From positions 7,441,794 through 7,505,793 of the forward strand of contig CAVNZM010000010.1 of NCBI GenBank assembly GCA_963693365.1: a stretch of 64,000 nucleotides of DNA. The letters are read 5' to 3'. The notes under the pieces were generated by a model. It saw only the letters and a list, made by a program, of their open reading frames with translations, ran no database searches and was not told the DNA's origin. Position 1 is the stretch's first letter; each line of letters opens with the position of its first letter. This DNA comes from Amoebidium appalachense. Lineage: Eukaryota; Protista; Ichthyosporea. Both the position numbers and the translations under genes were made by a program. This document shows positions 1 to 46,789 of this stretch, piece after piece.

Positions 1-586
1 TGTTTATCTGAGAGGTAGCGTGATTGGCTAGCCTCACTCGTTGTCTTTCCTTTATTTCAAAATGGCTTAGTTTTGTTCTCAAAAGGATGGCTCGCCAATA
101 GTCGCGAGCGAGTACATCTGTAGATCGTGTTGTGCATTCCTGTCTGTTAATATATGTGTGTTGTGATTGGACAATAGATATATATGGAATTCGGTTTATT
201 GCAAAGTGTCTTCACTTTGAGAGTGTCGACTTTTAGGAAATATATGTATTTAAATAAGTTTCTTTATAGAGACGAACATAAATATATATGTGAGTTAATA
301 GTAGTGACTAGATGTATAATTACTTAATTTATTTAAGTAAGAGTTTCTACACTTTAGTTTAATCGGAAGTTGGAATGCGTATGCTCTGTCGGAATGTGTT
401 TTTCTATCTTCTGATAGAACCGATTGGTTCTCCCTCTTTAGTTGTGATAAGGTGATAAGTCGCAAGTACAAAAGGAACCGAGAGCACAATAAAGAATCAG
501 TTGTTGTTTGAAATCTTTCAATGTCTCGTGAACAACTCCGATTGCCCTCTCATTAATGTGTTAGTCGTGTTTTACATGACACCTCT
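1..586 (+). repeat. Host interspersed AT-rich repeat (viral insertion target)
   Basis: Near-identical to 43625-44207. Confidence 0.92.
582..586 (+). repeat. 5-bp target-site duplication CCTCT, left copy
   Basis: CCTCT abuts both TIRs; the empty site at 44203-44207 has a single CCTCT (…CATGACA-CCTCT-GTGCACTCTG…). Confidence 0.93.
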
Positions 587-816
587 ACTACAATAAGGGT
601 CTCATTTCCGTGCTTTGTCTCCCGGGACAGAGGGGTCGCGGCTCGTGTATTTGTCCTTATACGGATTTTGATTGGCTGCCCGGTGGCTTACGGGCCATGC
701 CTGCCGGTACAGGGCCGGCTGGGCCGGGCCAGGGGCACATATGTGCACTGGAGCTGTTAGCTGGCGGTGCGGGCCGGACCGGCCCACTGTGCACGTGTGG
801 GTGTACCTGCACGTGT
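587..816 (+). repeat. Left terminal inverted repeat (230 bp)
   Basis: Reverse complement of 39941-40169; by eye one substitution and one 1-bp indel. Confidence 0.97.
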
Positions 817-1170: not shown

Positions 1171-1325
1171 GATTGGTGGACCTAAATTTAAGCTGTACCC
1201 TATTGGTCAAAAACGCACCGCGAAGAATGTTTCCATCGGTGTCGCGAGTGTACATGTGGCAGCGAACCGGCCATGACCGTCTTTTCCAGATGGTCATGGA
1301 CCCGGCGAAAGAAAACTATATAAGC
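1171..1325 (+). promoter_or_regulatory. Putative Pol II-type promoter (two ATTGG/CCAAT boxes + TATA) of the leftmost viral gene
   Basis: ATTGGTGGACCTAAA, CCTATTGGTCAAAAACGCACCGCG and AAAACTATATAA; the same three blocks recur inverted at 39626-39777. Confidence 0.6.
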
Positions 1326-6744: not shown

Positions 6745-6778
6745 GTTTTATTAGAGTATACACATTTTTTTTGTTTGT

Positions 6779-7309
6779 TTAAATCACAAGCTTCTGTTTG
6801 CGGGGATTGGGAGGGTGGGGATCCCAACTCACTACACGTGGCCCGCCCACCCCTTGCTTCTCTGTAAACAGTGCCAGGCACACCCCCTCGGGGCACGGCC
6901 TATCAAACCCCTCATACCGCAATCTACCCCGTACGATCCTTATCTCATTAGCATGTTTGAACAGCAAATCATGAAACCACCGGGTTTCGGTTCTAGCAGG
7001 TACCAACATCACTGTTTTCTTGCCCATGGTGCGCGCCAGCTCAATGGCACGCCTAAGAAACGGTTCAATGGTGAGGAAAGGTGGGTTGATGTAGTTGACT
7101 TGCGTGTCTGAAAACACCGTGTCATTGGTGAGCGCGTTGGGGCTCTTCCCCTCCACATAATCAATGGGGCACGGGTCAGTCAATGGTCCGAACTCGGCGG
7201 TGAGCGTGTCCAACAGCCAGGCCGGTGTCTGCACCTCATCCGTGTCCACCCCCTCCCTCCTCTTTTTGGTGGTGACGGCATACACATGGCTTACGGATCC
7301 CAAACCCAT
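6779..7309 (-). CDS. Phage Dam-type DNA N6-adenine methyltransferase
   Basis: DEVQTP…DPCP…YINPPF (motif IV)…MLVPARTETRWFH…EIRIVRGRL, typical of the small phage N6A-MTase family. Confidence 0.9.
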   Translation of the reverse strand: MGLGSVSHVYAVTTKKRREGVDTDEVQTPAWLLDTLTAEFGPLTDPCPIDYVEGKSPNALTNDTVFSDTQVNYINPPFLTIEPFLRRAIELARTMGKKTVMLVPARTETRWFHDLLFKHANEIRIVRGRLRYEGFDRPCPEGVCLALFTEKQGVGGPRVVSWDPHPPNPRKQKLVI

Positions 7310-7409: not shown

Positions 7410-8888
7410 CTACTGTGGCCACATGGCCACATCCAAAGTGGGTAACTGGCCAGATGGCCACTTCCCGGTTGGCCACATCTTCATCTCCTCCCGTGGCGCC
7501 GCCCGCCTTGCGCCGCGGAGCTCAGGTGTTCGGCCTGCTTTTCGTAGTAAAGCCCCCTCCTGACCCTTTCCTTCCTCGCCCTCTTGTCTGCGCGCGTGTG
7601 CGCGGCCCCAGGTTCCTTGCCGGCATACTCCAGCCCCTGCTGGACCGCCTCCTTCATCGTGCCTTTGCGCCCAGCTTTCATACCCTGACTGTGAGGCACG
7701 GACATGCTGGACTCCGCCACCTTCGGGCCAGGCATACTCGACACCTGGCGGCTTGTGCGGCCGAAGCTGAATGGGGTCCGAGTGTGGCTTCTTGAGCAGC
7801 CAGCCGCTCTTGTCCTTGTACGCCAGCTGCCACACGCCCTTGGACCAGTTGCGCCCTTCCTTCTCAAACGCTCCCTTGGGCTTCTTGAGCGCCCGCACGT
7901 ACGTGTCCCTTGTGTGTCCCATTCGGGTGGTCAGTACCTGCTTCTGCTTCCGGTTCTTAATCCAAGTGAGGATGGAATTCCACCGCTCCAGTCTCTGGTT
8001 CATTTCGTTGGGCGGTCTCCCTATGGCCCCGTGGTACGAGTCGTTGTAGTCCTCCACCACGTCGTCCAGGCCCCACGTCCACGCACCCGTGTCGTGCGTC
8101 TCCATGTATTGGTTCAAGCCGTGTTTGAGCGTACGGTGGAAGCGTTCTACCACCGCCACATTCCTGGGTTTCCTGCCCGTCTTTTGTGGCTCCATGTATT
8201 GGTTCAAGCCGTGTTTGAGCGTACGGTGGAAGCGTTCTACCACCGCCACATTCCTGGGTTTCCTGCCCGTCTTTTGTGGCAGAAGAAGGATGTCTTTGTC
8301 CCTAAAGTACTTTTTCATGTCCCCGCTCGTAAATTCGTTGCCTTGGTCGGTGAACACCTGCTTCACGGCCGTCCCGACGTCGGGGTCGGGCTCCAGCCCC
8401 CTCTCACGGTTTGACTCGTCTTTTAATGCCTGGATCGTATCGAGCGCTTTCCCCATGGCCCTCTTCATCACGCTCGTGTCCACCGTGTACCTACCCGTGT
8501 CCTTGGACTTCTTGCTGGTTATGGGCACTACGGCCGCCTGACGTGTGTTCATGTCGACCACGCTGAGCCCGCCCTTGTATTTGCGCTTACCGTGGGGGGT
8601 GACTGGGTTGGCTGCCACGTACTTGGGCATGAAAAACAGGTCCACACCCACGCTGTTGGGGCGGGCCGTGGTCGTGAGAAAGTCCTTCCTGTCGATCTTG
8701 TGTGGTGCGTACACCTCTTTGAGCGAGGCCACCTCGCCCGGCAGGTGCCGTTTCAAATAGTCCTGCGCTTGCTTCAGCGTGGCGCCCTTTGCGCGGTAAC
8801 GGAGCGCTTGCGCGCTGGGCGGGTTCTTGAATGAGTGGTAGGCAGAGGCCAGCTCCTGCTCGGTCACCCTACGGGTCGGCTTCTTCAT
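7410..8888 (-). CDS. int: Retroviral-like (rve, DDE) integrase; 30-aa internal duplication; C-terminus possibly frameshifted (alternative end 7481)
   Basis: VDLFFM…VVDMNTR…VFTDQGNEF…VVERFHRTLK…YNDSYHGAIGRPP. Confidence 0.92.
   Translation of the reverse strand: MKKPTRRVTEQELASAYHSFKNPPSAQALRYRAKGATLKQAQDYLKRHLPGEVASLKEVYAPHKIDRKDFLTTTARPNSVGVDLFFMPKYVAANPVTPHGKRKYKGGLSVVDMNTRQAAVVPITSKKSKDTGRYTVDTSVMKRAMGKALDTIQALKDESNRERGLEPDPDVGTAVKQVFTDQGNEFTSGDMKKYFRDKDILLLPQKTGRKPRNVAVVERFHRTLKHGLNQYMEPQKTGRKPRNVAVVERFHRTLKHGLNQYMETHDTGAWTWGLDDVVEDYNDSYHGAIGRPPNEMNQRLERWNSILTWIKNRKQKQVLTTRMGHTRDTYVRALKKPKGAFEKEGRNWSKGVWQLAYKDKSGWLLKKPHSDPIQLRPHKPPGVEYAWPEGGGVQHVRASQSGYESWAQRHDEGGGPAGAGVCRQGTWGRAHARRQEGEEGKGQEGALLRKAGRTPELRGARRAAPREEMKMWPTGKWPSGQLPTLDVAMWPQ
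8101..8280. repeat. Perfect 90-bp tandem duplication inside the integrase
   Basis: 8101-8190 equals 8191-8280. Confidence 0.97.
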
Positions 8889-19401: not shown

Positions 19402-21250
19402 ATGGCCCAGGGGGACCAGCCTGAGAGAGCCGAGATTCTGAAGCAGCTGGGGCTATTTAGGAACAGTGTCTCACCGGTGGCCGTGTATCGTGTGAAATAT
19501 CAAACCGCCGAGGACGTGAAACACAATAAATGGAGGAACGCCGCGTGGTTCGGATTCGGATCAACCATTATAAGTCCCCGCAGATATCGTGTGTTGTATG
19601 AGAAAGGGCTAGAGGCGTTTTTGGCCCAGGAGGGCTACGAGTCGGTAGCCCGTCCTTGGGACCGTTCCGGAATGCCGCCTGAACGAATCAAACTTGACGT
19701 GTATTATTACGATTCGTGGAAGGAGCTTTTAAGAGACCAGCCACTTCAAACCACCTATGTGCGGCCAGGGAGCGCACTGAGTCACCTTGAAAATGTTCCC
19801 CCCCAACCCGGCACGTTGTCCGAGTCGCCGTCGCCGCCACCACCGTCGTCGAACGTTCCCGACATGGCACACCAGAGAGCCGAGATTCTGAAGCAGCTGG
19901 GGCTATTTAGGAACAGTGTCTCACCGGTGGCCATGTATCGTGTGAAATATCAAACCGCCGAGGACGTGAAACACAATAAATGGAGGAACGCCGCGTGGTT
20001 CCGATTCGGATCAACCATTATAAGTCCCCGCAGATATCGTGTGTTGTATGAGAAAGGGCTAGAGGCGTTTTTGGCCCAGGAGGGCTACGAGTCGGTAGCC
20101 CGTCCTTGGGACCGTTCCGGAATGCCGCCTGAACGAATCAAACTTGACGTGTATTATTACGATTCGTGGAAGGAGCTTTTAAGAGACCAGCCACTTCAAA
20201 CCACCTATGTGCGGCCAGGGAGCGCTCTGAGTCACCTTGAAAATGTTCCCCCCCAACCCGGCACGTTGTCCGAGTCGCCGTCGCCGCCACCACCGTCGTC
20301 GAACGTTCCCGACGTGGCGCCCAACCCACCTCCCCCGGTGCCCCCACCAACGTCCAACTTGAACGTTCCTGACGTGGTGCCCACCCCACCTCCCCCGGTC
20401 CCGATACCTTTCCCTCCCCCTCCCCCAACCACCACCACTACTAGTAGTACTAGTGGTAGTATCACGACCGTGGTCCCCGGACCGGCACCTTTTCCTCCCC
20501 CTCCCCCTCGGGCCACCACCTATCTTACCTCCCCCGCCGGACCACTCTCGTCGAGCGCCGTCACCGTGCCCCCGGGACCCACTACTACTACTAGTACCAC
20601 AAGTTCTGCTCCCGTGCCACGGCCAGCGGTGCCCCCTGCCGCTCAGGCTGTCCCCAGCGTCACTACTAGTACTAGCAGTAGTACCTTGGCCACCGAGTAT
20701 CCAAAAACGAAGAGCACGGTCTCAGTAACCAGCGACCCCACGCGCACCTCTAATTATTTAGAAGGAGTGGTGCCTGCGGTCACCGACTTTGCTAAGGAAG
20801 GCCTTGTTTGGGTGAAGGACAGTGCGGGGGCCGTGGTGGGCGCCATATACCACGTGCCCACTCATGCAGCGCAACTTGCGCAAGTTGCAGCAGGCACCTA
20901 TTCCAAAGTCACAGACACGGGTTACGGCCTTTACGACAGTGCCGGCCGCTATGTTGGGAAAGGGGTCGACAGCGCGGGCTACTATATTGGGAAGGGTGCT
21001 GATGCGGGTTATGACCTTTACGATAGCACCGGCCGCTACATTGGGAAAGGGGTAGACAGTATCAGATCCGCTCTCTCCGGCCTATCCCACCGGATACCTT
21101 TGGAGCGTGGGATTGAGTGGAGCTCGAAAGCTGTGGAGGAGTCGCAGCTTGCCCTTTCCAGCCTCGCCGGCATGGGCTATGGCCTGTACGACAGCGCCGG
21201 CCACTACATAGGAGACCTTGCCCAATACGTCAAGGATTCAGCGTCCCTTA
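19402..21250 (+). pseudogene. Large Pro/Thr-rich viral protein, 5' part; interrupted by a transposon
   Basis: The 636-aa ORF runs into the transposon TIR; it has a 150-aa duplication and GYGLYDSAGxYxG repeats. Confidence 0.75.
19424..20318. repeat. Near-perfect 450-bp tandem duplication (in frame)
   Basis: Sequence at 19424 recurs at 19874 with few substitutions. Confidence 0.95.
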
Positions 21251-22278
21251 CTAAATCAGCAAACTTCATCCGGCATCCGAAACCCATTAAAAACCCATTA
21301 AAGATATCATAAACCCATAAACCCATCTTTTTGCCACTCTTTATCCCCCTCTTGTCTTTTAGATAACATAACAGCATCGTTTTGCTATCACGGGTTTTCT
21401 GGATATCATTTTGGTATCTTTTGCTAGATATCAAAATGATCTCATAATGGGCTCATACGGAGCACCCTGAACCCATCGTTGTTCTATCCTGTGTTCCATG
21501 TATTCAACAACCTCGTTATATCCGTATGATACCATTATGATAGTCTATTTGATATCATAAAATCTTTTTAGTCTGATGTTCAGAAGCGTTTTAGACATAA
21601 TAAAGATATCTCTAATAGCGGATTAGGAGCCCTTCCCCATATCCTTATGGTAGCTATCACATATCCTTACGATATATATGATAATCGATCATAAGATACA
21701 TATATATCTATATGATATCATTTCGAGGTCATTATAGGAGGTTTCGTATATGGTAATACATCTATAAGATACTATTACAGATGTCCTTTTCATATACAAC
21801 GGATAGGTATAGGATGCCGAAAACATTATCTAAAGATCATACGTTAAATGTCATAACGATATAAGCCTCATAACATAAAGATAACTAGGATGGGTCAAAA
21901 GAAATTTCGTAATAATATCGTTTTGATAGTTTTAGGAGCCTTTAAAGATATGAGAAGTTCTGGCTGTATGTCCTCTACACAACATCTTTCTAGTATCTGT
22001 TACATATCGTTAAAACATATAGTAGTTTATCAGCTAACCATTCCTTATGATATTAGTAGCATATCGTTAACATAACTCTGTCACATCTTTTTGACATACA
22101 GCACTTATATCAAAACGATAAATTTAAGGTATAATTAAGATTTATTAAGAATGATTTTCGCAATATAGTTATATTATCCTTTTCATATCATTATGTTATG
22201 TCTTGATATATATGATTGAGCCATTTTCAAAGTTGATATCATCCAGACGTCGTTTCCGATCACTGTTTGATGTCGTTT

Positions 22279-22328
<50 letters not shown>

Positions 22329-22739
22329 CCCCTCACCCCTTTCGAACCTGCCTGTCACGTGGTCATATGTCGTCGAGCCGCTGATTACAGATCCATTTTC
22401 TGCAGACACGTCCCACTGGAACGTGTCAACTATAACTCATCTATTATCTTTTACGTAGGGTTATGTCCCACTGGGGCGTGTCTGTCACTTCAAATATTTT
22501 CTAAGACAAATATTTTCTAAGACAAATATTTTTAAAGACATGTCCTCGGGACATGTCTTCACACAATTTATTCGAACTACGAAAACACACAAAATAAATA
22601 CAGACACACACAAAATAATAATAATAATAATAAAAATAATAAAAAGCTCTGTTACTTTTTCTCTTCGCACACACACACACAAAAAAAAAGAAAAAAAGAA
22701 AAAAAAAGAAAAGTCACTCTTTTGTGTGTGTGTGTGGGG

Positions 22740-24056
22740 GGGGGGGGGGGGGGGGGGGGAAGGAGTATAAAAGAGCAGCAACGAACATAAACAAAACTCA
22801 AAACAAGCAAACTATTATGCGGGTTTCTAAGAAGCTCCCAACATCATTAAACTAAACACATGCTAATCCCTTGACAGAAGAGTAACAAGGTGTGTGTGTA
22901 TGGGTATGAGGCCCAAAAAAAAAAAAAAGGACGCCCAACATGACAATATAAGGGGGGCACTCTTACACCAAACCATACCATACCAAATGCCGGCAGAGTA
23001 ATTAACAGGACAAAGAGCCGGTACCCACCTATGGGTGCTAAACATGCACATGATCATTCATGTGCTATAAGAGCAACACAGAAACGAAACACGGAAACAA
23101 CAGCAGCCATAGGACAAAGAACCAGACCCACAGGGTCTTGCCTCCATACTTTATTTACCTTAACAGGACAAAGAGCCGGTACCCACCTATGAAACGAAAA
23201 ACGGAAACAACAGCAGCCATAGGACAAAGAGCCGGTACCCACCTCTAGATGATAACGTAGCCTTATAGCTGCTGATGACTTCATGGGCCAACCTTGCCAA
23301 AACCTGTAAAGGAACTCGAGCTAAGAATTAGCTCATCCTACTTGCGAGAAGTGGGGGGGAGGGGGGGGGGGGGGGGGGGGGGGGGACTGAGGGGGCTGAC
23401 TGAGAGTGGCAAAAAAAGAGTCGACAGAACCAACCTTAAACATAGTAAGGACGGAAACCCGGACCAGAACTTATGAAGTCTAGAGAAGCAGAAAATAGCT
23501 TGAACGATCGGTGGAGGGGATGATAGCTATAGTGCTAACAGCAAAAGTAGTGCCCACAGTCGCTGGTTCATGAACGTGAAAGGCAACGTGCATCTGCAGC
23601 CAGCAGACACACGCACACGCACGCACGCACACACACATACACACACACACACACAGACACAGACACAGACCAGACAGACAAACGCCATATGCACAAAAGC
23701 AGGCAACACAAAACTAACCTTCAAGAAGAAGCTGCAGCATGCAGCATGCGGAGGGGAAAAAATTGCAAACCGGATTGGGATTTAGCCAATCACTATTCGC
23801 CGCGCCTGATTAGGAAAAAGATAAAAATAGATTTCGGCTCGCGCGCGCGCGTGCATCAGCTTGGTGCCCTTAGCGCTACCCTTAGTGCCCTTAGTCACAA
23901 CTATCAGACTATAGTTACGTGTCCTCCACTTCTTTGTTCTTGACCATTTTTTCGGCATGAAAGGGTTTCTGTTACTTCTTGCTGTCCTTCTTAGCGTGCT
24001 TGCTTGTCTTTTTTTCAACATGGGTGTCACTGGCGCTTTCGACTTCTTTGAAATCA

Positions 24057-24087
<31 letters not shown>

Positions 24088-24481
24088 GCGCGCACGCGCG
24101 CACGCACACACACTCACACATGCACACTGCACACACACACACACACACACACACAGGCGCGCACACACAGGCACGCACACACACACAGGCGCACACCTAC
24201 ACAACACACACAGCACATGCACACACAAGCGCACACACGCACACACCCTGTTATCCCTGATCATGATGCCCCCTCCCCCCTCCCTCTTCCCCCCGCGCAC
24301 CCCCCCCCCCCCCCCCCCCCCCCCCCACCCACCCCACCCACCCACCTACAAAGACGAAAACATTGTACATGTATTGCATACACAAATATACTCGCACATA
24401 TACATACACACATTCACTTTAATCTTTCAGGCTACATGTGCAATATACATTAATTATGCACAGTCGATAGAATTCGTTGTG

Positions 24482-24519
<38 letters not shown>

Positions 24520-24634
24520 TCGTTCCCCCCATATGCAATGGGGATAATATTGTTTCCCGCTATTAATTAAAAAATCACCGTTCTAACTTCTTAAGACCGA
24601 ACCACTTGTAACACCGACAGTTTCGGTTGTGTGG

Positions 24635-24679
<45 letters not shown>

Positions 24680-24790
24680 CCCACCCACCACCTTACCAAT
24701 ATTGAGGTGTACACTGCCCCCACATCCCCAACTGTGTGCTGAATATCCCGTGCTAGGAAACCAATAACGTGAAAGTAACACATGCCGCAT
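22740..24790 (+). repeat. Host repeat block shared with 42385-43270 and 44245-45570
   Basis: Collinear near-identity (e.g. identical track ORFs 23294..23476 and 42933..43115). Confidence 0.9.
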
Positions 24791-26700
24791 GTGGGTAGTT
24801 ATTGAAAAAACCAATAATGTCTAGGTAACATACCGTATGATGTACATATACTATGCTACAAAGGGGGTTCTATACGAGCTACAACGTTGTGTTTTTTTCG
24901 TGTGACCCTCGTACTCCAGGGGCACATTCACCATCCCCCCCATAAACTTTGTGGTAAAGTTCTCGTGCTAGAAGCTGTTCTGTGGGTAGTTATTGAAAAA
25001 ACGAATAATGTCTAGGTAACACATGTACATATGCTATGCTACAAGGGGGGTTCTATTCGAGCTACAATGTTGTGTTTTTTTCGTGTGACCCTCGTACTCC
25101 AGGGGCACATTCACCATCCACCCCATAAACGTTGTGGTAAATCTCTCGTCCTAGAGGCTGTTCTGTGGGTAGTTATTGAAAAACCAATAATGTCTAGGTA
25201 ACATATATATGTACATATACTATGCTACAAGGGGGGTTCTATACGAGCTACAACGTTGTGTTTTTTTCGTGTGACCCTCGTACTCCAGGGGCACATTCAC
25301 CATCCCCCCCATAAACGTTGTGGTAAAGCTCTCGTGCTAGAAGCTGTTCTGTGGGTAGTTATTGAAAAAACCAATAATGTCTAGGTAACATACTATGTAC
25401 ATATACTATGCTACAAGGGGGGTTCTATACGAGCTACAACGTTGTGCTTTTTTCGTGTGACCCTCGTACTCCAGGGGCACATTCACCATCCCCCCCATAC
25501 ACGTTGTGGTAAAGCTCTCGTGCTAGAAGCTGTTCTGTGGGTAGTTATTGAAAAAACGAATAATGTCTAGGTAACACATGTACTTATACTATGCTACAAG
25601 GGGGGTTCTATTCGAGCTACAATGTTGTGTTTTTTTCGTGTGACCCTCGTACTCCAGGGGCACATTCACCATCCACCCCATAAACTTTGTGGTAAATCTC
25701 TCGTGCTAGAGGCTGTTCTGTGGGTAGCTATTGAAAAACCAATAATGTCTAGGTAACATATGTACATATACTATGCTACAAGGGGGGTTCTATACGAGCT
25801 ACAACGTTGTGTTTTTTTCGTGTGACCCTCGTACTCCAGGGGCGCATTCACCATCCCCCCCATAAACGTTGTGGTAAAGCTCTCGTGCTAGAAGCTGTTC
25901 TGTGGGTAGTTATTGAAAAAACCAATAATGTCTAGGTAACATACTATGTACATATACTATGCTACAAGGGGGGTTCTATACGAGCTACAACGTTGTGTTT
26001 TTTTCGTGTGACCCTTGTACTCCAGGGGCACATTCAACATCCCCCCCATACACGTTGTGGTAAATGTCTCGTGCTAGAAGCTGTTCTGTGGGTAGTTATT
26101 GAAACAACCAATAATGTCTAGGTAACACATGGACATATACTATGCTACAAGGGGGGTCTATTCGAGCTACAACATTGTGTTTTTTTCGTGTGACCCTCGT
26201 ACTCCAGGGGCACATTCACCATCTCCCCCATAAACTTTGTGGTAAATGTCTCGTGCTAGAAGCTGTTCTGTGTGTAGTTATTGAAAAAACCAATAATGTC
26301 TAGGTAACATACTATGTACATATACTATGCTACAAGGGGGGTTCTATACGAGCTACAACGTTGTGTTTTTTTCGTGTGACCCTCGTACTCCAGGGGCACA
26401 TTCACCATCCCCCCCATAAACTTTGTGGTAAAGCTCTCGTGCTAGAAGCTGTTCTGTGGGTAGTTATTGAAAAAACGAATAATGTCTAGGTAACACATGT
26501 ACTTATACTATGCTACAAGGGGGGTTCTATTCGAGCTACAAGGTTGTGTTTTTTTCGTGTGACCCTCGTACTCCAGGGGCACATTTACCATCCCCCCCAT
26601 AAACGTTGTGGTAAATTTCTCGTGCTAGAGGCTGTTCTGTGGGTAGTTATTGAAAAACCAATAATGTCTAGGTAACATATGTACATATACTATGCTACAA
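24790..26700 (+). repeat. Tandem satellite, ~184-bp unit, about 10 copies
   Basis: Unit TGTGGGTAGTTATTGAAAAA…CTCGTGCTAGAAGCTGTTC recurring head to tail. Confidence 0.95.
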
Positions 26701-26813
26701 GGTGCTACAAGGGAGGAGATATTTTATGAACGGGAGAGTGAGCCGAGAATGTGTAGATAAAGAACAGAGGAATATCGAGGCAACCGTGGTGTACCCTGTC
26801 TTTATGTGAACAC

Positions 26814-26845
<32 letters not shown>

Positions 26846-26912
26846 CTCGCGCGTTCGTGTCTACCGATGTACGTGCACACGGGCATGTGTTTGGGTGTGT
26901 GTATGTACGTGT

Positions 26913-26967
<55 letters not shown>

Positions 26968-26992
26968 AGGTGCGCATGGTAACGTGTGTGTG

Positions 26993-27068
<76 letters not shown>

Positions 27069-27101
27069 CAACGTGCCTGTGTGTGTGTGTGTGTGTGTGG
27101 C

Positions 27102-27132
<31 letters not shown>

Positions 27133-28627
27133 AGGGCAACGTGTCTGTCTGTGTGTGTGTATCTCTCTCTGTGTGTGTGTGTTTGTGTGTGTGTGTGTGG
27201 CAGCGTGCGTGTCTCGCTGTGTGTGTGTGTGTGTGTGTGTCATGATTGACGACATAGGTTCAGAAGAAGAGTGTGTATCACTACGTTGCAGTTTTCACAT
27301 ACTTTGTAGTTCACGCGCGCGGAGGCATAATGTTAACGTGCGTTACCGGTTATAGAAAGCACAAGCGTAACTAGCGTTTTATATCATAAATAGTCATAAA
27401 ATGGTAACGTTCATTATAACTACGATGCATGAGAATAGAATGATATCAACAATACATACATTAGATATCGTACGGATATCTTGCGATATATCATCTGGTG
27501 TCCGGAGAATGTGCACGTGCCTGTGATGTGCACCCGCCCTAATGCAGTAAGGTATTGTTTTCAGGCGCTAATAAACCTTCAAAGGTGGTAACATCCTCGG
27601 AACACACAAAATATAAAATTGCAATAAATAACCATTTTCCTGCTTCGATGCTCGAAATTGGTACTATGTAGTTACTAGATTGCTCTATTTTGCCTAGTGT
27701 TTAGTGTTTCGGACGTTCGCAATTTACACTCTGCCACATGGCACTTGCCAAATGGGGTAATTTAGTTTTATTTGCGGCCGTTGTGGTTGCGTGTTTATCT
27801 AACAAATATCATTATGAGATGTTTATGACCCCTGTGGGATATGTACAAGATCAGACCATAGAAGATCAGGTCGTTGCGATGTCGTAAAGATGGCAGAAAC
27901 ATATCTTCATTAGATGTATGCGATAATCTCAATTAAACATGAAACGTGATTGGCTGATCACAGTTGGGTGACCCTGAGCATGCCGTTTTGAAGAATAACA
28001 ACCAATCAAAATCGGGTTTGCCATTTTGTGATTTTCGTCCCACAATCGAACGGAAAAGTGATTTCCTGGCCCTATATAAATGGCCATGCCACCATCACAT
28101 TCAGATGGCCGCAATGAGCCCCGCAATGCCCCGTGTGAGTAATTGGCGGGTTTCCCAACGATTGCTCAGCTGGCTTGATCACAAAAATTTTCTTTGCGCG
28201 TATATCGCAACCATTCTCATCGGACATCTAATAGACATCTAAAGGATTTTTCGATTGTTCTTCTGATATCTTTCTAATATCCACAATGCTGCCGTTTAGA
28301 TATCACATTGATGTACTTACAAAAGACACTGACCTTCTACTGCACGGATGTTCTTCTGATATCTTTCTAATATCCACAATACTGCCGCTTAGATATCACT
28401 GGGATGGCAAGCTTATGTATCATATACTTATGAATTCGATATATAAATATATCCCTATGCGGATATCGCAATGATAATCTAAGGGCCTCTAAAAGATATG
28501 TAGATGATACCTCGTGGACTACTGCTCTGGACAAATTAGGATATTCAAATGATAGGTTACAGCATATCACATTGATGTACATAGCGACATCTTACCGATA
28601 TCAATCACACAACTCACTAGTCTTTAC

Positions 28628-29230
<603 letters not shown>

Positions 29231-30321
29231 TTAGATATATCAGGTACATATCCTTACGACGTGTACAAAGATATGAATTAGATATCGTAGCTTGGGCCTG
29301 CAAAGAGGCAGTTGTGATATGTTTGAGATGTAGGACCAAAAACAGATAACATATTGAATATAAAAGGGATATCAAAAAGAATATCAAAAGGATACCCACA
29401 ATGCTGCCGTTTTAGACAGAGCGGGATATTCAAATGATAAGTTACAGCATATCACATTGATGTACATAGGGGCATCTTACACATACCAATCACATATATC
29501 ACAAGTCTTTATTTAGATATATTTGGTACATATCCTTACGACCTGTACAATGATATGAATTAGATATCATATCTTGGGCCTGTGGACAAAGGGATATCCG
29601 AAAGGATATCAAAAGGATGTCTTCAACATGCCTACTGGTTGTGTACAAGGGTATCTTCTGGATTACCCCCATGGGCGCATAACGATATCAAAAAAATGGT
29701 TGTAGGTACATCACAACGATGTCCAGACGATATCAAAACAACATCTGTATTATATTCAATTTATAAGCATACATGTTATCCATCAGATATCACGTGGATA
29801 TCAATTTGTATTGTCCCACGACATCAGGTAGATATCGTCATGTAATGCGTATTGGATGGGATTAAGATATTCTATAATGAGGGATATCTGTAGGCTATAA
29901 CAAAGACATCTAACAGATATCGTTTGGGGCACCAATATCCTAAACGTATGTGAAACATATCCAAAAGAGCTATTATGACCTTGCTAACATACATATCACT
30001 AGGATAGCATATGGATATCATAATGCTATGAGGAAATTTTGAGATTTTCGGTCAAAAACCAAAACCATCGTGGTTTTCTATGATATCGTAAGGATATCGT
30101 AAGGATATCAGCAAAGGATGGGTTTCGGATATGCGCCATACCATAACCAATCCGAACCCTATCAAAGATATCATTGATAGGGATCTGATGGGTTCTATCC
30201 GGGAATTCTATGATATCTTGTCAGGCTCTTTTTGACGTATTTAGGGTGGGGTTTGGTATGCCATATATCAAAATGATATATAAGATGGGTTTCGGATGCC
30301 GGATGAAGTTTGCTGATTTAG

Positions 30322-30833
30322 TAATGTCGCCAAAGGAATGGACGTTCATCAGCGTCCGCGACATGTGGAACGGTGTCTTGAACTGGTACCGGGTACCCGA
30401 CCACGGTCCGGCGCGCTGGGGATGGCGTGCTGGCGAATACGCGTTGCCTGGACAAGCTGTTGAGCCTGCGGTCCCTTCGTTGCCTCTTCTCGGAATGCGA
30501 CCGGAACATATACGTATAACACCCGCCGGCGGCGCCGTTGAACACACTGCTGCGGGGACACCCACCGTGACCGCACCGGTGCCAGTGATGCCACCTATTA
30601 CCGTAATGCCCGGTACTACTACTACTCCTACCACTACTACTGCTGATGAGTCTAGTACAGCAGCCGCGGCCACTGGTATCCGGTCCGTCTATGAAATGAT
30701 AACGGGGGCTTTGGTACCTTCAAGTTGGGGACACACACCTCGGCCTGAGGCTCCCCTGTTCAAGCGGGCCTGCCATATTACGCTGCGCACCTACGTACGC
30801 CCAGAGTGGCATTTGCGCGCACGGGCGGGCTAG
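30322..30833 (+). pseudogene. 3' part of the interrupted Pro/Thr-rich viral gene
   Basis: GC-rich coding sequence resumes right after the TIR (MSPKEWTF…PGTTTTPTTTT), with the same ACT-repeat Thr tracts as the 5' part. Confidence 0.65.
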
Positions 30834-31714: not shown

Positions 31715-32557
31715 TCACTCCACCGGGTGGCCGACGTCCAAGCAAAACATGTTGTATTCGACTAGAAGATGGTACTTTCTTAGGTCCTTTTCAAGCTCTT
31801 GCCATACCTTTTCGCTCTTTACCCTAGTTATTTTACTTTTTACGGCAGGGAGCAGCGGCTCCAGGCTCCTGGCGTCCATGCCGCTCACTAGCCCTACCAT
31901 CTTCACTAGCAGGAAAGGATAGCCAAGGAAGTTCTTGCGTTTGTCGTCCTTATACCGTTTGTGCCATGCTAGGGAAAACTTGAACATGCCCGTGAGCAGC
32001 TCAATCTGTTCGCAGCTGAAGCGGGGCAGCGACCAGCCGTACAGATGCTTCATGATGACAGGTGCGTGCGGGTAATGCTTGGTCAGCTTGTGTTTGCGCA
32101 GGATCTTGCGCACGTGGTCTGCGTCCTTGATGTTGGGTGTGTCCTCAAACGCGCGCCGTACGCCCTCTCCCAGCTCACCCACAGAAGCGTTTAGCCCTTG
32201 TATGGCGTGCAGCAGTTGCTTGAAGTGGTTGATGTGTCTGTAGGGCTGTGACCTCTTCCTGTCCCAGAATGCCGTGCACCCTTCGTATGTGTGTCTCCCT
32301 TCTCCATCGCTTGCATCCCACCCTCTTCCGTCCCACTCCCACTCCTCTTGCCAGTCTTCCGCTTCCCAATCCGTGTGCTCATGATCGTCGTCAGCCTCTG
32401 CCTGTTCGTGTCCCCACGGCAGGGTCGACGGGTTTTCGTTAAGTTCTGTGTCATGCTTGGTGCTGCAGTAGAAGTCAAACAGCATGGGGCACAGATCCAA
32501 CAGCTTTTCGGGATCTGTGGCCCCCTCCACAGCTCGGCACACGCTCTCTTCATCCAT
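31715..32557 (-). CDS. VLTF3: VLTF3-like late transcription factor (poxvirus A2 / Nucleocytoviricota family)
   Basis: YRHINHFKQLL…VRKILRK…KHYPH…LTGMF…KRKNFLGYPFLLVK…VKS…VWQEL matches the VLTF3 pattern (YKR-x-NHF…RKNFL-x-Y…LKS…IW). Confidence 0.85.
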   Translation of the reverse strand: MDEESVCRAVEGATDPEKLLDLCPMLFDFYCSTKHDTELNENPSTLPWGHEQAEADDDHEHTDWEAEDWQEEWEWDGRGWDASDGEGRHTYEGCTAFWDRKRSQPYRHINHFKQLLHAIQGLNASVGELGEGVRRAFEDTPNIKDADHVRKILRKHKLTKHYPHAPVIMKHLYGWSLPRFSCEQIELLTGMFKFSLAWHKRYKDDKRKNFLGYPFLLVKMVGLVSGMDARSLEPLLPAVKSKITRVKSEKVWQELEKDLRKYHLLVEYNMFCLDVGHPVE

Positions 32558-32617: not shown

Positions 32618-33514
32618 TTATACTTTTTGGGCCTCTAGCTCGACCATGACGTGCTCCACAACGGCTTGTGCGAACGCTGCAGGCACACAGTTTCCAATCA
32701 TGCGCTTGCATGCTATGGTTTGGGGTACATGGTCGGTGACGTAGCCGAGGGGCAGGGTCTGCAGTAGTTCCCTTTCACGGTTAGACACCCATCCCACCTG
32801 CTTCATGTCCTTGTCAAAGTAGCGAAACACGTTGCTGGTGACTGTGTAGAAGCCAGGGTAGTCACCATCCAACCTCCTCCTCCTTTTGCCATACACGGGG
32901 TGGGCCACACGCCCCTGACTTAGGGTAGAGCTCGTGACATAGACGGCACCTTCTGGTGGGTTCAAGCACTCTCTCCACCCCATGGACGGTGGCCTGGGCG
33001 CCAGCGCTTGCAGGTCAAACCCACCGTAGCCAATGATGCGCTTGCGCAGCTGCGGGCAGCCGTACTGGCTCAGGTTTAGGACAGCATAGCTGACACCATT
33101 CTTTTCAAACAGGGCCTTGATTTCGGGTACGGGCACCTGCTCAATCGTGTAGGCATCGGGCTTGAAGGCCCGTATGACGTCAATGGCATACTGCACCAGC
33201 CTCAGCCCTTCCTCTACGCGTCGGTGCTTGTAGTTGACCACGCTCAGTTGGGTGCATGGTGGGCTTGCGTGGATGAGCGTGCAGTCGTGCGGCCCCATGG
33301 GAGGCAGCAAGGAGCGGAGTAGCTGCGCAAACTCTGCAGGAGGCACCGTGCCCAGCATGGTTTCCAGGTGCGTAGTGGTGGGGTGGTTGGCCTTGTGCAC
33401 TCTTAATGCCTCTGGCCAGCAGTCGGCTGCTACGGCCACGCTTGCCCCTGCCTTAGCAGCCCCACACGAGTAGCCACCCCCACCACAGAACAAGTCTACG
33501 AGATAGAGCACCAT
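32618..33514 (-). CDS. C5-cytosine DNA methyltransferase (Dcm-like, catalytic domain only)
   Basis: Motif I DLFCGGGG, IV ASPPCTQLS, VI EQV, VIII QLRKR, X IGNCVP. True start is MVLYL at 33514; the upstream extension is microsatellite. Confidence 0.93.
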   Translation of the reverse strand: MVLYLVDLFCGGGGYSCGAAKAGASVAVAADCWPEALRVHKANHPTTTHLETMLGTVPPAEFAQLLRSLLPPMGPHDCTLIHASPPCTQLSVVNYKHRRVEEGLRLVQYAIDVIRAFKPDAYTIEQVPVPEIKALFEKNGVSYAVLNLSQYGCPQLRKRIIGYGGFDLQALAPRPPSMGWRECLNPPEGAVYVTSSTLSQGRVAHPVYGKRRRRLDGDYPGFYTVTSNVFRYFDKDMKQVGWVSNRERELLQTLPLGYVTDHVPQTIACKRMIGNCVPAAFAQAVVEHVMVELEAQKV

Positions 33515-33569
33515 TCTCACACACACACACATACACACACACACACACACACGCACACAAAAAAACCAT

Positions 33570-34180: not shown

Positions 34181-36708
34181 CTAGAACTCAATCTCCTCCC
34201 CAGCCCACCCAATGGGGTAGGTGCGGATGCCGTTGCTGGTGCACACTACCCCCCGCTTGTCGAAGGCCCCTGACTGTGTCTTTGTGGTGTCCTTGTTCAC
34301 GATCACGTTGGTGAGGTAGATGCCCTTCTCCCTCGTGATCTTGTCCTTGTACTCGACCGTGAAGGCATCCACCTCACCTGCCACCAACCTGTGCAGGTTC
34401 TGTAATGTGATGATGTCTGTGGCCCGGCGGGAGAGGGTGATGCCTTTGACCTTGACGTCCATCTTGCCGTCCCTGCAGCGGTACGCGTACGTCTTGGGGG
34501 CCACATTGACAAACTCCACAATGGGTGAGTCTGTCTCCTCCTTCCAATTGCCCAGCAGGTCCCCGTTCTCGGTGCTGATGGTGTGGCTGAGGTGGGGCTT
34601 GCTCTTGTCGTAGTAGTAGACAATGGAGTCGGTGTCCATGTAGACCACCTGTTGAGGGCTGAGGGACTTGAGGGTCCGGAAAAGGTGCAGGCGTGCGTGC
34701 GCAGTGACGTAGGTGCCGATGGCAATGTTTGCGTAGGAGGGGGGTGGGGCTGTCTCCCGCTTGTGCCGGTACTTGACGGCCAGCCTGTTGTTGCCAACCA
34801 CCTGGATGTCCAACACTTGCAGGTTGGGGTTGTCGATGAGCCTCATCATCTTCTCCGGGCAGTCGATGTACTCCACCCACGGCGTGTCCATGCCTGCCCT
34901 TTGCACCAGCTTGCCCCACAGGCTGTTGAGGAACAGTTTGCTAATGGTGCGCAGTGCAGCGTTGGGCCTGAACTCGTCCGGCACGATGGTGATGTTGTAC
35001 TTCTCCAGCTGGGCCTGGACGACTCGGAGGGCGGGCACCTCCTCGGGCTTCACCTTGGTGGACACCAACTTGAGCTTGAGGAAGGTCTTGACGTAGTCTT
35101 GGAACAGGTGGGTGGACGTGTTGGGGTAGTGCACCACATCGTACACCTCTAGCAGCGTGTAGCCCTCGTTCAGTGCCTCCTTGATCTCCTCTGTGGTCCA
35201 TGTGCCCACGAAGGCCCTCTCCTCGTCCGTGTGTGTACACTGCGCGTGCTGCCTTGCCTGCGTCATGCACTCCCTGTCCCCCACCTCCCCTTGCAAGGCG
35301 CTGCATCCCTTGGCGCACAGCCTGCACTCTGGGAAGGCCAGCTTCTCGGATCCCTGGGCGCCGCTCATGCGTACGGGCAGGACAGGGATGAAGCACCCCC
35401 TCTTGCACGCAATACGCACGCGCGCCATGCCAAAGTAGTTGCCTGCCACCAATTCACGTTGCAGCTCGCTTGCGCTCACCACCTTGGCTTCGGGGAAGTC
35501 GTTGGTGCTGATGTCCAGGGCCGTTAACCACACTGGCTTGCCCACAGGCATGCGTTTGTCAAACATGACAAAGGGGTAGAGGGAGGTGACATCCACATAG
35601 GCCATGCCGACGTTGGGGTCGTGCTCGTCCACCTTGAGGTACCGGGTCACCACCTCCGTGCGCCCACCAAAGAAGGCCTCACGGATCTGCACCGGGCCCG
35701 TGGGCTTGGGGGCCAGCCGGCCCGTGTCCCCCCTCCGCATGTTCTGCTCGGCAATGGCCCGCTTCACCTCAGGTGTGTGTCTCTTGGCCTCCCAATCACA
35801 CTCCCACATGCTCTCCACCCTGTGCCCCCTCTCCCTGATGAAGGCCTCGTGCTGCATGGTGAGCTTGTGGCAGCTCTTTGCCGTCCTGCTCGTGACTCTT
35901 GCCGTGATGTCTGCATCCTTGTTGCACCTGGGGCAGCCGTGGAAGGCGCACCCATGGAAGAAGTAGTAGGTGGTGACGTTCTGCTCGTTGGAGTGCGCTG
36001 CATCGGCCCTGAAACGTGTGCCCTGCCCCTGCCTGTGGTTCTGGGTGGTGAAGCCGGTGACTGGGTGTCGTTGTATGTCGTCTGGCCCCTTGCCCAGCTG
36101 GTGTGTGATGTAGTCAACGTACTCCTGCTCCTTCTTGCTGGTGTTGATGTTGCCCATGGCACGGTCCCTGTGCACGGGGATGTCCTTGGGCTTGGCATGG
36201 GTGATCCAGAAGTGGAGGGAGAGGGAGGCCAAGGTGACGCAGGTGAAGGGGTCGATGTTGGTGAGCTGCACGAACTTGGTCTGGAAGTTCTTGACCACTT
36301 GGCGCAGCAGCTCGACGTCCTTCTTGCAGTACTCGATGCATTCACCGAGTATGTCATAGCACCGGTCGGCAGGCAGCCCCTTGCTCTCCTGGGCCACCTT
36401 CTCGGCCTGGTGCCAAGGCTTGAACTCCTTGACGTAGTAGCGCTCACGCATGTCTGCTGACCCGAACTCCTCCTCCGCAGGGAAGGGGATCATGCCGGCC
36501 TTGAAGTTCTCAAAGGTGGCTGCCCGGTGGGGGAAGTGGCCCTTGGTCTCCTCACACCCCATGGCCTTGCCAGCATCGTCCAGGCGCATGGTAAGGAAGT
36601 TGTACGTGTCCACAAACATGATGTCCACTGCTGTCTGCACGTTGCCCTTGCCCTTCTCCCTCTTCCTCTTCCTCCCACCACCCTCTGCCTGCTGGGTGTC
36701 CTCGTTGC

Positions 36709-36770
<62 letters not shown>

Positions 36771-39563
36771 GCATCGGGCTGGGGCTGGGGCTGGGCTGGG
36801 GGTGCTGAGGTCTGCCGTGGCTTCTTGAGGTAGTGGGTGATCCTGGCCGTCTTGATCTTGGAGTTGGAGAGCACTGGGCGGTAGATGTAGTCGCTCTCAC
36901 CCACCACCCGCTCGGTGATGAAGTGGAAGTCGAAGCCACCCCCGTTGTGGCAGAAGACGCGCGCGCCATGGTGGCGTGGGTTGTTGAAGATGTAGTCGTT
37001 CACTTGGTCAATGACGTTAAACTTGTCGTCCCGCAGCACATCCCACATGTTCTTGCCGGCCTGCTCGTCGGCAGGGGAGGGCTTGGGCAGCAGCACCACG
37101 GGCTCGGAGGGTTGGCCGGGCAGGGGGTCGACCAGGTTGACGACGGCCATGTACACCACGTGGCGCACCTTCCTGTCCTCGGGCTGGCTGCCCTCCTCGG
37201 CCACCGGCATTGTCTCAAACTTTGAAGTCGAGGACAATGTCGGACACTGGCCTCCTCGTCTGCTTCCACGCGCTGCTGCTGTTGGGGGGCAGGTGGTGGG
37301 GGCACACGTGGTCACCGGTGGGCATGGCATCGTCGTCTAGCCGTGGCTGACGTGCAGGTGGGTCCTCCCCCTCCTCCTCTTCCTCCCCTTCCCCCCCTCC
37401 CCCTCCCCCTCTTCCTCCTCCTCTGCTGCTGCTGCTGCTGCTGCTGCCCCCCTTGCGTGTGTAGCAGGCCAGCCGGTCACACCCCTCCACTGTGCACATG
37501 TACACGGGTTCGGCCGGCCGCTTGCTGCGTATGTAGCAGGGGTGGTCAATGGGCATGTAGCCACCACAGCCTGGGCAGTCCACGTCGCTGCATGCGTGCT
37601 GCTTCCATGTGTCGTCCTTTGGCTTCTTGCCCCGGCCCTCCTCCTCCTCCTCCCCCTCCCCCTCCCCCTCGTCATCTCCCTCGAAGAGACCCTCCCCCCC
37701 AAAGAGGTCCTCCCCCTCCTCCTCCTCCTCCTCCTCCTCCTCTGTGTCCATGGGCATGGCATGGCCGTGCTGCCCATCAGCCCCCTCCTGCTCCTGCTGC
37801 AGCTGCGCGCGCAGTTGGCGCACGCGCGCGTAGCGGTACTTGAGGTGGTACCTGCCGGCCGGGTTGCCCGTGAGCACTGTGCCCGTGGCGCTGCACTTGC
37901 TCATGATGCCGTGCACGCACGTGTCCCCCCTGCACCAGAACACACGGTCGCACGTCTGACCCTTGTGGTTGTCCATGCAGGTCTTGGAGGGGAAGATGCC
38001 GTTGCAGCCCGCGCATGTGTACGGCCAGCCCTCCTCCCCCAGCTCGGCCAGCTGCCGGCGCCGCTCCATGGTCCACTGGCATGCCCCGGCAAAGTCGGTG
38101 AGTGACCCCTTGTTGCCGCAGTTGTCGCACTGGTTGATGCATATGTGCGCGCCGTACTTGTCCCGCCTGACGGTCCTGTTGCAGTAGAAGCATGTGGTGT
38201 ACTGACGGTGGAGGCTGCCTTCGTACTTGGCCAGGTTCAGCCGTTCGTAGACATGGCTCACGTGCCTGACAATGGGCACGTAGTGGCGCAGCTTGTGGAA
38301 GTAGGCCATGTAGATGGTGCACAGCTGGGCAGGGGGTATGCCAGTGCTCATCTCACCGAACCTTGCCAGCAGGAGGCCCTTGCTGTCCCCGCCCAGCAGC
38401 ACGAGGCGCAGCCGGCCACTGTGGCCCTGGTCATGCAGCGCCTGGTTGAGCTTGGACACGGCCACCTGCAGCTGATGGGGGGTCAAGCCGAACTGGCCAG
38501 GCAAGGGCAGCTCGTACTTGTTCTGCAGCACATGGGCTGCTCGGGCCAGCCGGCGCAAATAAAGATCGGGGTGCTTGACTGTGTGGCGTGTTTTGGGCGG
38601 CAGCACGAGGCTGCACACCCTGCATGTTGCCCCGGTGCGCGTGTTGGTGTGGGTGCCGGTGCCGAGCACTTCCTCGGCCGTCAGCAGCTTGCATAGGATG
38701 TGGTTGTCCGCACGCCTGCGTAGATCTGATCGTTGCATGTCTGTGGGCAGTTTGTAGCTCTCGTTGGCGTTGGCCGGCTGCTTTACCCAGTGCGCCGCAC
38801 CGTACACCAATGACACCAGCCCGCACCATGTGCCGGCCACCTGCCTCAGCACGGGTTCATCCCCCCTGTGCTCCCCCACGTCCACCCCGGAGGGCGGCAC
38901 GTTCACAGCCATGCCAACCATGGTGCCCACGTCGGGCACGTCGGCCTTGTGCTCCATGCGCGCCACGCCCCTGAAGGCAGCGCTGTCTGCACCCCGCTCC
39001 AGACTTGCACCCCCGCACCCCCCGCTGGGCTGCAGGTCCGATCGGCGCACGATGGTGAGGTGCACCTGGGATGTGTTGTCGATGTAGGTTTCCGCTGCGC
39101 TCTGGGTGCGCTCACGTATGCTCTCCATGAACTTGAGCACAATGGCGGCCACGTCACCGTCATATTCGGTCAGCCCGCCCGCTGTGAACACACGGGTGCC
39201 TGCCTGCACGTCCTCACCCTCTGATCCCTCCTGCATGGCCACCCCCTGCCTCTCCACGCGCATGCTCAGGATGCGCATGAGCAGGCGGTCGCCAGGCACT
39301 ACCCCGGCCCGGCTTATGGCGTCCGTGATGATGGCCGTGAAGAAGTCGGGGAACTCGGTCACGTCCAGGCGTCGGTTGACGCGGTAGTCGTACACCATGG
39401 AGCGCACGCCCAGCCCTCTTGCTTGGTCGTTCTCAGTGTGTGACTCCAATCGCCACATGGGTGGGCGGCCGGCCGGTGGGGGGTCCAGCCTGTCCATGAT
39501 GTCCAGAAACTCGTCAATGTTAGCGTCCCAGTAGGGATCCGCGGCATAGTCCTGAGATGCCAT
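34181..39563 (-). pseudogene. polB: Protein-primed family B DNA polymerase (~1790 aa when repaired) with N-terminal TP/vOTU-like/Zn-finger region and Vsr-like nuclease insertion; frameshifted in ExoI
   Basis: ExoI IVLD|FET split between ORFs 37215..39563 and 34181..37330; ExoII HNGGGFD; ExoIII YCKKDV; YVDVTSLYP, KLFLNSLWGK, YMDTDS, APKTY, KVKGI; FHGCAFHGCPRC…WECDW insertion. Confidence 0.95.
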
Positions 39564-39625: not shown

Positions 39626-39777
39626 CTTTTTATAGTTTTTTTTTCCCGCCTTCCAGAACGCCCCGTGCATGCTCGTGTATGCTGGATGTGTACGGATATT
39701 GGCGACAAAAGAAAAAAAAAGCCGCGGTGCGTTATTGACCAATAGGAACTCGGTTGCGCTTTTTTAGGTCCGCCAAT
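39626..39777 (-). promoter_or_regulatory. Putative Pol II-type promoter of polB (two CCAAT boxes + TATA)
   Basis: Inverted counterpart of 1171-1325; TATA lies ~70 bp upstream of the polB ATG. Confidence 0.6.
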
Positions 39778-39940: not shown

Positions 39941-40169
39941 ACACGTGCAGGTACACCCACACGTGCACAGTGGGCCGGTCCGGCCCGCACCGCCAGCTAA
40001 CAGCTCCAGTGCACATATGTGCCCCTGGCCCGGCCCAGCCGGCCCTGTACCGGCAGCATGGCCCGTAAGCCACCGGGCAGCCAATCAAAATCCGTAGAAG
40101 GACAAATACACGAGCCGCGACCCCTCTGTCCCGGGAGACAAAGCACGGAAATGAGACCCTTATTGTAGT
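39941..40169 (-). repeat. Right terminal inverted repeat (229 bp)
   Basis: Reverse complement of 587-816. Confidence 0.97.
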
Positions 40170-40174
40170 CCTCT
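40170..40174 (+). repeat. 5-bp target-site duplication CCTCT, right copy
   Basis: Directly follows the right TIR; the next ~40 bp match the empty site at 44208-44243. Confidence 0.93.
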
Positions 40175-43385: not shown

Positions 43386-43515
<130 letters not shown>

Positions 43516-44838: not shown

Positions 44839-44890
<52 letters not shown>

Positions 44891-44912
44891 GCACACACAC
44901 TCACACATGCAC

Positions 44913-44948
<36 letters not shown>

Positions 44949-46700: not shown

Positions 46701-46789
46701 AAACCCGATGCTTATAAGTAACGCATGCACAAATTGTCATCATAGCATTATACTACCACAGTAGTTGGTCGACAATCGAGTGATACAGC

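Follow-up and report, generated by a model that had tools for sequence, protein, structure and literature searches.

A VLTF3 homologue with an acidic, tryptophan-rich segment at the zinc-ribbon position in a Polinton-like element of Amoebidium appalachense

Boundaries and gene content of the element

The stretch of DNA analysed here (64,000 nucleotides, hereafter the window) contains a Polinton-like element at 587-40169, which measures approximately 30.5 kb when an inner insertion is left out. The left terminal inverted repeat (587..816, + strand, 230 bp) matches the right one, with which it pairs (39941..40169, - strand), at 99.1%, and the two are flanked by copies of the 5-bp target-site duplication CCTCT at 582..586 and 40170..40174 (both + strand). 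The usual Polinton duplication is 6 bp, against 5 bp here. A paralogous host repeat (43625-44207) provides an unoccupied site, with a single CCTCT at 44203-44207. The inverted termini, the flanking CCTCT and the empty paralogous site thus fix both boundaries exactly and make it probable that the insertion is young. A copy of this host repeat (1-586 and 40170 onward) surrounds the element; the region 42405-46734 is related to the repeat, the copy at 43625-44207 being 98% identical, and pieces of the same host-repeat region also occur within the inner insertion.

The inner insertion is a secondary, host-type insertion of 9.1 kb (21248..30324, no strand assigned), which splits the element and has 40-bp perfect inverted ends. 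Its GC content is approximately 43%, versus 56-59% in the arms of the element, and it has repeats in common with the right flank. The sub-terminal regions of the insertion are AT-rich with many GATATC-like words, nested host repeats are present, and TA is a possible target duplication. A 186-bp tandem array lies within it at 24790-26702 and is found again at 45570-46734. No transposase was identified in 21248-30324.

The left arm of the element carries genes for a Dam-type adenine methyltransferase (6779..7309, -; PF05869, E 1.4e-12), a retroviral-type (RVE) integrase (7410..8888, -), an A32-like packaging ATPase (16403..17158, +; PF04665, E 2.5e-10) and the major capsid protein (17201..18966, +). 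The right arm carries VLTF3, a C5 cytosine methyltransferase (32618..33532, -; PF00145, E 5e-19) that immediately precedes VLTF3 and shares its strand, and pPolB (34181..39563, -; PF03175, E 5e-43 on the second part). The element encodes both adenine and cytosine methyltransferases. The integrase match is weak (rve_3 E 5.9e-5, below the cut-off; PHROG transposase E 2.7e-8), and the target duplication fits an integrase. A possible minor capsid protein (13706..14783, +) lies in two overlapping frames; it is a candidate by its position and a C-terminal motif only, and it had no library match. The N-terminal part of pPolB (37215-39563, -, 782 aa) contains several Cys-rich clusters and poly-Glu runs and likewise matched nothing in the libraries. 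After a 457-aa coiled-coil, fibre-like ORF (12277-13650, -) come ORFs at 10260-12246 (-) whose N-terminal motif is similar, and these probably encode virion appendages.

The capsid, polymerase and candidate minor capsid genes are each split over two frames, either by decay or by assembly error, while VLTF3 is intact; in the capsid gene, the first stretch is in a different frame from the 522-aa main ORF (17398-18966). Tandem duplications in coding regions were seen at 8086-8280 (90-bp period, inside the integrase gene) and 19424-20318 (450-bp period, 99%, in a 636-aa ORF), and are either recent duplications or assembly artefacts.

According to Atlas features, the capsid protein scored 0.98 to Preplasmiviricota clusters and 0.97 to double-jelly-roll clusters, a lead obtained without alignment; one of the top three clusters was with Nucleocytoviricota, and the placement is mostly in Preplasmiviricota clusters. 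Its sequence relatives were P0167 (50%), P0168 and a protein of Sphaeroforma arctica (28%), which suggests a host of ichthyosporean type; no match was obtained in the PDB and no relative in scans of viral and metagenome contigs. P0167 and P0001, the closest relative of the VLTF3 described below, are each listed on two contigs, the longest of 17,803 bases, and are probably from one sister element.

No RNA polymerase was detected, either as a Pfam match among the 28 and 11 ORFs scanned or in a six-frame scan for the RNA polymerase motif ADFDGD, and neither TBP nor TFIIB was found in the element. The scanned ORFs, several of which remain unannotated, also gave no Pfam match to NCLDV-type capsid, RuvC, HUH endonuclease or adenain maturation protease, and a crude adenain motif had 0 matches. 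Adenain, like a PolB of the adintovirus clade, is a feature of Adintoviridae in the strict sense (PMC8502044). When the other core genes of the element were compared by tblastn with 102 fetched loci, no match was returned. The Polinton-like setting without RNA polymerase that the first-pass annotation had proposed is thus borne out by the inverted repeats, the target duplication, pPolB and the polymerase scans. In addition, pPolB and the RVE integrase argue against membership of Mriyaviricetes or Nucleocytoviricota.

The VLTF3 core and the segment at the ribbon position

The VLTF3 gene (31715..32557, -) is an intact frame of 280 aa. The Pox_VLTF3 profile (PF04947) aligned from position 8 to 165 of 168 with residues 106-260, at E 1.4e-13 and 51.3 bits against a curated cut-off of 25, and the family motifs were located at residues 110-112 (NHF), 207-213 (RKNFLGY) and K240-S241...W252. 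The first-pass annotation had named the gene from these motifs and had proposed the profile search, and the match is clear. At core columns where 80% or more of 150 homologues agree, the protein is identical in 22 of 37, and the core (31778..32242, -) is basic, with a net charge of +14 over residues 105-262.

When 1.84 billion representatives were searched with VLTF3, 550 relatives were obtained at E <= 0.001, of which the best, P0001, shows 46-47% identity and the remainder approximately 30%. A word-seeded protein search found none of 365 candidates to be related, a protein search with the clade alignment returned solely P0002 and P0118, and the 64-kb window holds no second VLTF3. Codon use of the gene is inside the range of the element (mean correlation 0.57; range 0.43-0.73), and VLTF3 is therefore no fresh arrival. 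An origin as part of a separate insertion was ruled out, the gene being inside the pair of terminal inverted repeats and outside the inner insertion.

The AlphaFold2 model, for which 149 relatives served as alignment, was confident in the core (mean pLDDT 79; 85-98 per block, residues 101-270) and of low confidence at residues 38-90, and single-sequence folding gave a pLDDT of 39. With this model, Foldseek returned 13 matches in BFVD at E <= 0.001, mostly named VLTF3 or B385R (probability 1.00), and the best were VLTF3s; matching viral models included the VLTF3s of Tetraselmis virus 1, Clandestinovirus, pandoraviruses and medusavirus, and B385R of ASFV. A wrong-frame artefact was ruled out by these matches and by the Pfam match. 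No match at E <= 0.001 was obtained against the PDB. In the VIA structure search, 33 of the top 37 rows were Rb, cyclin, TFIIB, Brf or Orc6, as judged by eye from their titles (Z 4.8-6.6), and the best were Rb pocket B (Z 6.6), cyclin C (6.4), TFIIB (5.8), Brf2 (5.7) and archaeal TFB (5.7). Approximately 90-110 residues aligned to one cyclin box of TFIIB/TFB chains (Z 5.1-5.8, rmsd 3.2-7.2). The TFIIB core consists of two cyclin-box repeats, and the predicted helical domain of VLTF3 appears to resemble a single one. This likeness is no more than suggestive, as every VIA Z is below 8, a range that a helical arrangement of a common kind may also reach. The first-pass annotation had made its reading depend on a match to VLTF3 or to the cyclin/TFIIB fold; the former is clear and the latter is weak but consistent.

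That Rb pocket B and cyclins are the best structural rows, tied with TFIIB, would also suit a captured VLTF3 that now targets host genes or proteins of the cell cycle by means of a cyclin/Rb-like box, or one that is simply carried along. Most Polinton-like viruses do without VLTF3 (PMC11244446, as far as the accessible text goes), and this copy of the element is decaying. We nevertheless consider such a role improbable, as the frame is intact, the 46%-identical ortholog keeps the family motifs, and the codon use speaks against a recent arrival.

The N-terminal part differs from the family. Eight of the 150 homologues have fewer than 40 aa ahead of the domain and were too short to score. Of the other 142, 138 carry a zinc ribbon by a relaxed CxxC...CxxC-type pattern and 126 by a strict one, and the ribbon was present in all 101 scorable VLTF3s from the 102 fetched loci. 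The family ribbon is TFIIB-like, since the best PDB match of its profile is 1pft TFIIB (E 8.5e-5), and the ribbon of P0003 matches Zn_Ribbon_TF and A2L_zn_ribbon. In the Amoebidium protein, which has no ribbon, C94 is the sole cysteine kept in this region, and the position is occupied by an acidic, Trp-rich, predicted disordered segment (residues 37-99; 32261..32449, -) whose residues 39-92 have a net charge of -17, six Trp and no Cys. The replacement of the ribbon by an acidic Trp-rich stretch, suspected in the first-pass annotation, is confirmed by this comparison.

The segment can be aligned with P0001 position by position, at 46% identity. In a tree made from the core only (64 of the 150 rows, 19 chosen and 45 random, without named references), the Amoebidium protein and P0001 were grouped with support of 100/94 and were joined at 97/98 by P0002 and P0118, both without ribbon. 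As judged from this tree, whose bootstrap was unconverged and whose clade branches are long, the four proteins form a ribbon-less clade. P0065, outside this clade, has neither ribbon nor acidic replacement, and its loss of the ribbon was apparently independent. Scans of viral and metagenome contigs returned no ribbon-less VLTF3.

The composition of the segment was scored with a published rule for activation domains, namely a net charge of -9 or lower and at least seven W/F/Y/L in 39 residues (PMC10550315); the rule derives from human factors, and the accessible part of the source gives its revised version a predictive value of approximately 0.2-0.7. Ten tiles passed in the Amoebidium VLTF3 and six in P0001. 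Across 22 ORFs of the element, 11 of 7078 tiles passed, and 10 of these 11 were in VLTF3. P0001 is the only homologue whose charge falls to -12 or below in the 75 residues that precede the domain, and 11 of 141 other homologues have a passing tile somewhere in the N-terminal part. P0002 has no passing tile, though its net charge reaches -9, and there is none in P0118, which has 35 residues upstream of the domain. On these compositional grounds, the segment conserved between the Amoebidium protein and P0001 looks like a candidate acidic activation domain.

A conserved core in a clade that has lost the ribbon as a whole would also be expected of a decoy, which still contacts TBP, partners or DNA, is unable to engage polymerase and is dominant negative for late transcription in a co-infecting giant virus. 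The acidic segment may then mimic DNA, and could fold back on the oppositely charged core. Against this, activation-domain composition is conserved in two proteins, the element itself offers a candidate late cassette and perhaps a VLTF2-like partner (see below), and the interfaces may no longer match because the identity to the giant-virus homologues found is approximately 30%. We rate the decoy as the least probable of the readings considered here.

Promoter-like motifs and a VLTF2-like finger

A promoter-like cassette with two reversed CCAAT boxes and a TATA-like box lies in the left sub-terminal region (1172..1323, +), preceding an ORF at 1367, and a cassette of the same layout in the right sub-terminal region (39628..39777, -) precedes the pPolB gene. 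Three motifs are common to both cassettes, which lie inward of the terminal inverted repeats. This CCAAT/TATA arrangement is the layout of cellular Pol II promoters, and the motifs suggest that the terminal cassettes may act as host-type promoters.

A different motif, A6TGT, precedes the capsid gene (17158..17166, +) and is a candidate late-promoter core, though defined after the fact. Other copies are located at 6762-6770 (-), 16030-16038 (-), 16101-16109 (+) and 18971-18979 (+), and further ones at 9457-9465 (-), 15974-15982 (-) and 4082-4090 (-). Of the nine copies in the window, the left arm holds eight, and the right arm has none. Five of the eight left-arm copies, including that of the capsid gene, are 21-38 nt before a start of the form AAC(G)ATGG, versus none of 46 other A-runs (p 2e-5, with both motifs defined after the fact). 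When enrichment was determined, A6TGT accounted for 8 of 54 A-runs in the left arm versus 3 of 135 in host zones (p 0.002, or 0.15 after correction by a factor of 64), and the difference between the left arm and the right arm (0 of 15 A-runs) had a p of 0.19. The enrichment by itself is thus weak and not significant after correction.

The motif cuts both ways, because A6TGT fits WWWWWTGW, the early promoter pattern of giant viruses, and the helper-dependent PLV PgVV uses the early promoter of its helper. The late genes may accordingly depend for their transcription, as in a virophage, on co-infection by a giant virus whose factors or polymerase recognise A6TGT, with VLTF3 plugging the promoters into that machinery. 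Several PLVs are strictly helper-dependent (10.64898/2026.06.19.733378, accessible part), and VLTF3 is itself a gene of giant-virus type. When Amoebidium DNA was demethylated, 32% of adintovirus genes came back on and the capsid genes stayed off; the giant viruses beside such elements are Medusavirus-related, and the authors suggest a virophage link (PMC11244446, in the text accessible to us). Because of this relationship, however, a helper in Amoebidium may have no polymerase to lend, medusaviruses being without one. It also counts against dependence on a helper that CCAAT/TATA-type cassettes and not giant-virus motifs are found at both ends, that the ribbon kept by nearly all homologues is lost here, and that the helper's own VLTF3 could serve a virophage. 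On balance we consider a virophage-like dependence unlikely, although it is the strongest competitor to transcription by the host polymerase.

One of the starts preceded by A6TGT opens an 86-aa ORF (16140..16400, +) directly upstream of the ATPase gene, which contains CxWCxHxF...FCSxxC and resembles a VLTF2-like zinc finger. The comparison was made with an HMM of 111 motif-selected viral proteins, which are putatively VLTF2-like and have the support of a weak zf-FCS match. Without composition correction, the ORF ranked first of 1260 frames in the window (E 1e-5 to 2e-5, 0 of 2000 shuffles), and with correction the E value was 0.7-1.0 (9 of 2000 shuffles). The FGG part, present in 106 of the 111 references, is missing, and the ORF has no Pfam match and no relative in the scans of viral and metagenome contigs. 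Because the HMM test is partly circular, the likeness is a lead only. A literature search on VLTF2, zinc finger and FCS found no paper. The finger would matter because VLTF2 and VLTF3 together have been called diagnostic of Nucleocytoviricota (PMC11253617, accessible text). Separately, a viral contig (L089) encodes near its VLTF3 a 476-aa VLTF2-like protein (7651-9081, -) with YSPTSP repeats like those of the Rpb1 CTD (Pfam RNA_pol_Rpb1_R), that is, a late factor with a mimic of the Pol II tail; a protein of this kind is also present in L099-L101.

Transcription of the late genes and comparison with known systems

VLTF3 is one of the few near-universal markers of giant viruses, including some that lack an RNA polymerase. 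The first-pass annotation had offered two mechanisms, and the present evidence leans to the host Pol II over the machinery of a giant virus. This is because of the activation-domain-like segment, the CCAAT/TATA terminal promoters and the retention of VLTF3 by nuclear giant viruses without RNA polymerase. We propose that VLTF3 may be the element's own late-gene activator, recruiting the host nuclear RNA polymerase II to the capsid genes, and we infer each step that leads from the protein to transcription. Host factors would first read the CCAAT/TATA cassettes at both ends, so that pPolB and the right-arm genes co-directional with it, VLTF3 included, are expressed early. The basic, cyclin-box-like core would then bind to host TBP, to DNA at the A6TGT cassette or to both, possibly partnered by the 86-aa VLTF2-like finger. 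Finally, the acidic-aromatic segment would serve as an ordinary acidic activation domain and call in host co-activators, instead of docking on the polymerase through a TFIIB-type ribbon.

The vaccinia late factors may link TBP to the polymerase (PMC8400408, in its accessible part), and for this reason too we consider that the proposal has an even chance of being correct. Weighing against it, the activation rule is human-based and is passed by 11 of the 141 other homologues while P0002 and P0118 fail it, and the fold likeness stays at Z < 8. The silence of the capsid genes after demethylation in Amoebidium fits a need for a helper as well as decay, and A6TGT agrees with the early pattern that helper-dependent PgVV uses.

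A broader and considerably more tentative reading is that the element captured a late module from giant viruses, VLTF3 with perhaps a minimal VLTF2 finger and a promoter of the A6TG type, and adapted it to the nucleus, whereby a TFIIB-like general factor became a host-style activator and the ribbon was traded for an acidic activation domain. If this were true, the way in which VLTF3 works with cellular Pol II could be studied in a minimal system, a 30-kb genome, and the pair VLTF2 and VLTF3 would lose its diagnostic value for Nucleocytoviricota. A ribbon-less natural variant in a small element with approximately five candidate late promoters can be tested with reporters, and VLTF3 (possibly also VLTF2) should be used with caution as a marker of giant viruses in eukaryotic assemblies.

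Exchange between such elements and giant viruses was reportedly proposed by Krupovic and Koonin in 2016 and by Yutin in 2015. The first-pass annotation had called VLTF3 not a standard Polinton gene, and this stands as far as "standard" goes; its presence in a Polinton-like element, implied to be new, is already published for several groups. The accessible texts report VLTF3 in Amoebidium 'adintoviruses' (Sarre et al. 2024, PMC11244446), in coral polintoviruses (PMC11131425), in PLV-like elements of Tetraselmis (PMC9356565) and in approximately 30% of two Zephyrvirus clusters, VC123/VC126 (10.64898/2026.06.19.733378); the accessible part of another report names it solely in a figure legend (10.1101/2025.10.09.676808). 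The coral, Tetraselmis and Zephyrvirus cases are likened to ours by description only, as VLTF3 in a small genome of Preplasmiviricota type. Among the closest are the Amoebidium adintoviruses, described as approximately 30 kb long with terminal repeats, VLTF3, Dam, capsid proteins and PolB (PMC11244446, accessible part); the present element measures 30.5 kb when the inner insertion is discounted, and a relative of its capsid occurs in an ichthyosporean. The accessible portion of that text is silent on a lost ribbon and an acidic segment, as it is on promoter motifs and VLTF2, and its supplement file 1 has 0 occurrences of 'zinc' and 'VLTF2'. A literature search that left most subscription journals outside found no publication describing the exchange of ribbon for acidic segment, nor any paper on VLTF3 together with TFIIB and zinc ribbon. 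The unreported part is thus the ribbon-less VLTF3 variant with an activation-domain-like segment.

In proteins of the TFIIB family, the zinc ribbon docks on the polymerase, and the VLTF3 described here is without such a ribbon. Vaccinia A2L (VLTF-3), after which Pfam A2L_zn_ribbon is named, belongs to the same family and works with A1L, G8R, H5R and the viral RNA polymerase in the cytoplasm; no equivalent of G8 or H5 was found in this element. The acidic segment resembles activation domains of the VP16 H1 / CITED2 class in disorder and in the acidic/aromatic rule, a likeness of composition only (PMC10550315, accessible part).

Nucleocytoviricota that keep VLTF3 without an RNA polymerase include, in the texts accessible, the nucleus-dependent medusavirus (PMC8400408), ariadnaviruses (10.64898/2026.08.29.747986) and the phycodnavirus CpV-BQ1 (PMC12085832), the latter two also encoding TFIIB, as well as mriyaviruses (PMC11253617). 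Unlike these viruses, the present element has a Polinton-type capsid, pPolB and an integrase, and no TBP or TFIIB was found in it. What the medusavirus, the ariadnaviruses, the phycodnaviruses and the mriyaviruses have in common with it is a late factor without a viral polymerase, which in those viruses presumably operates with the host Pol II.
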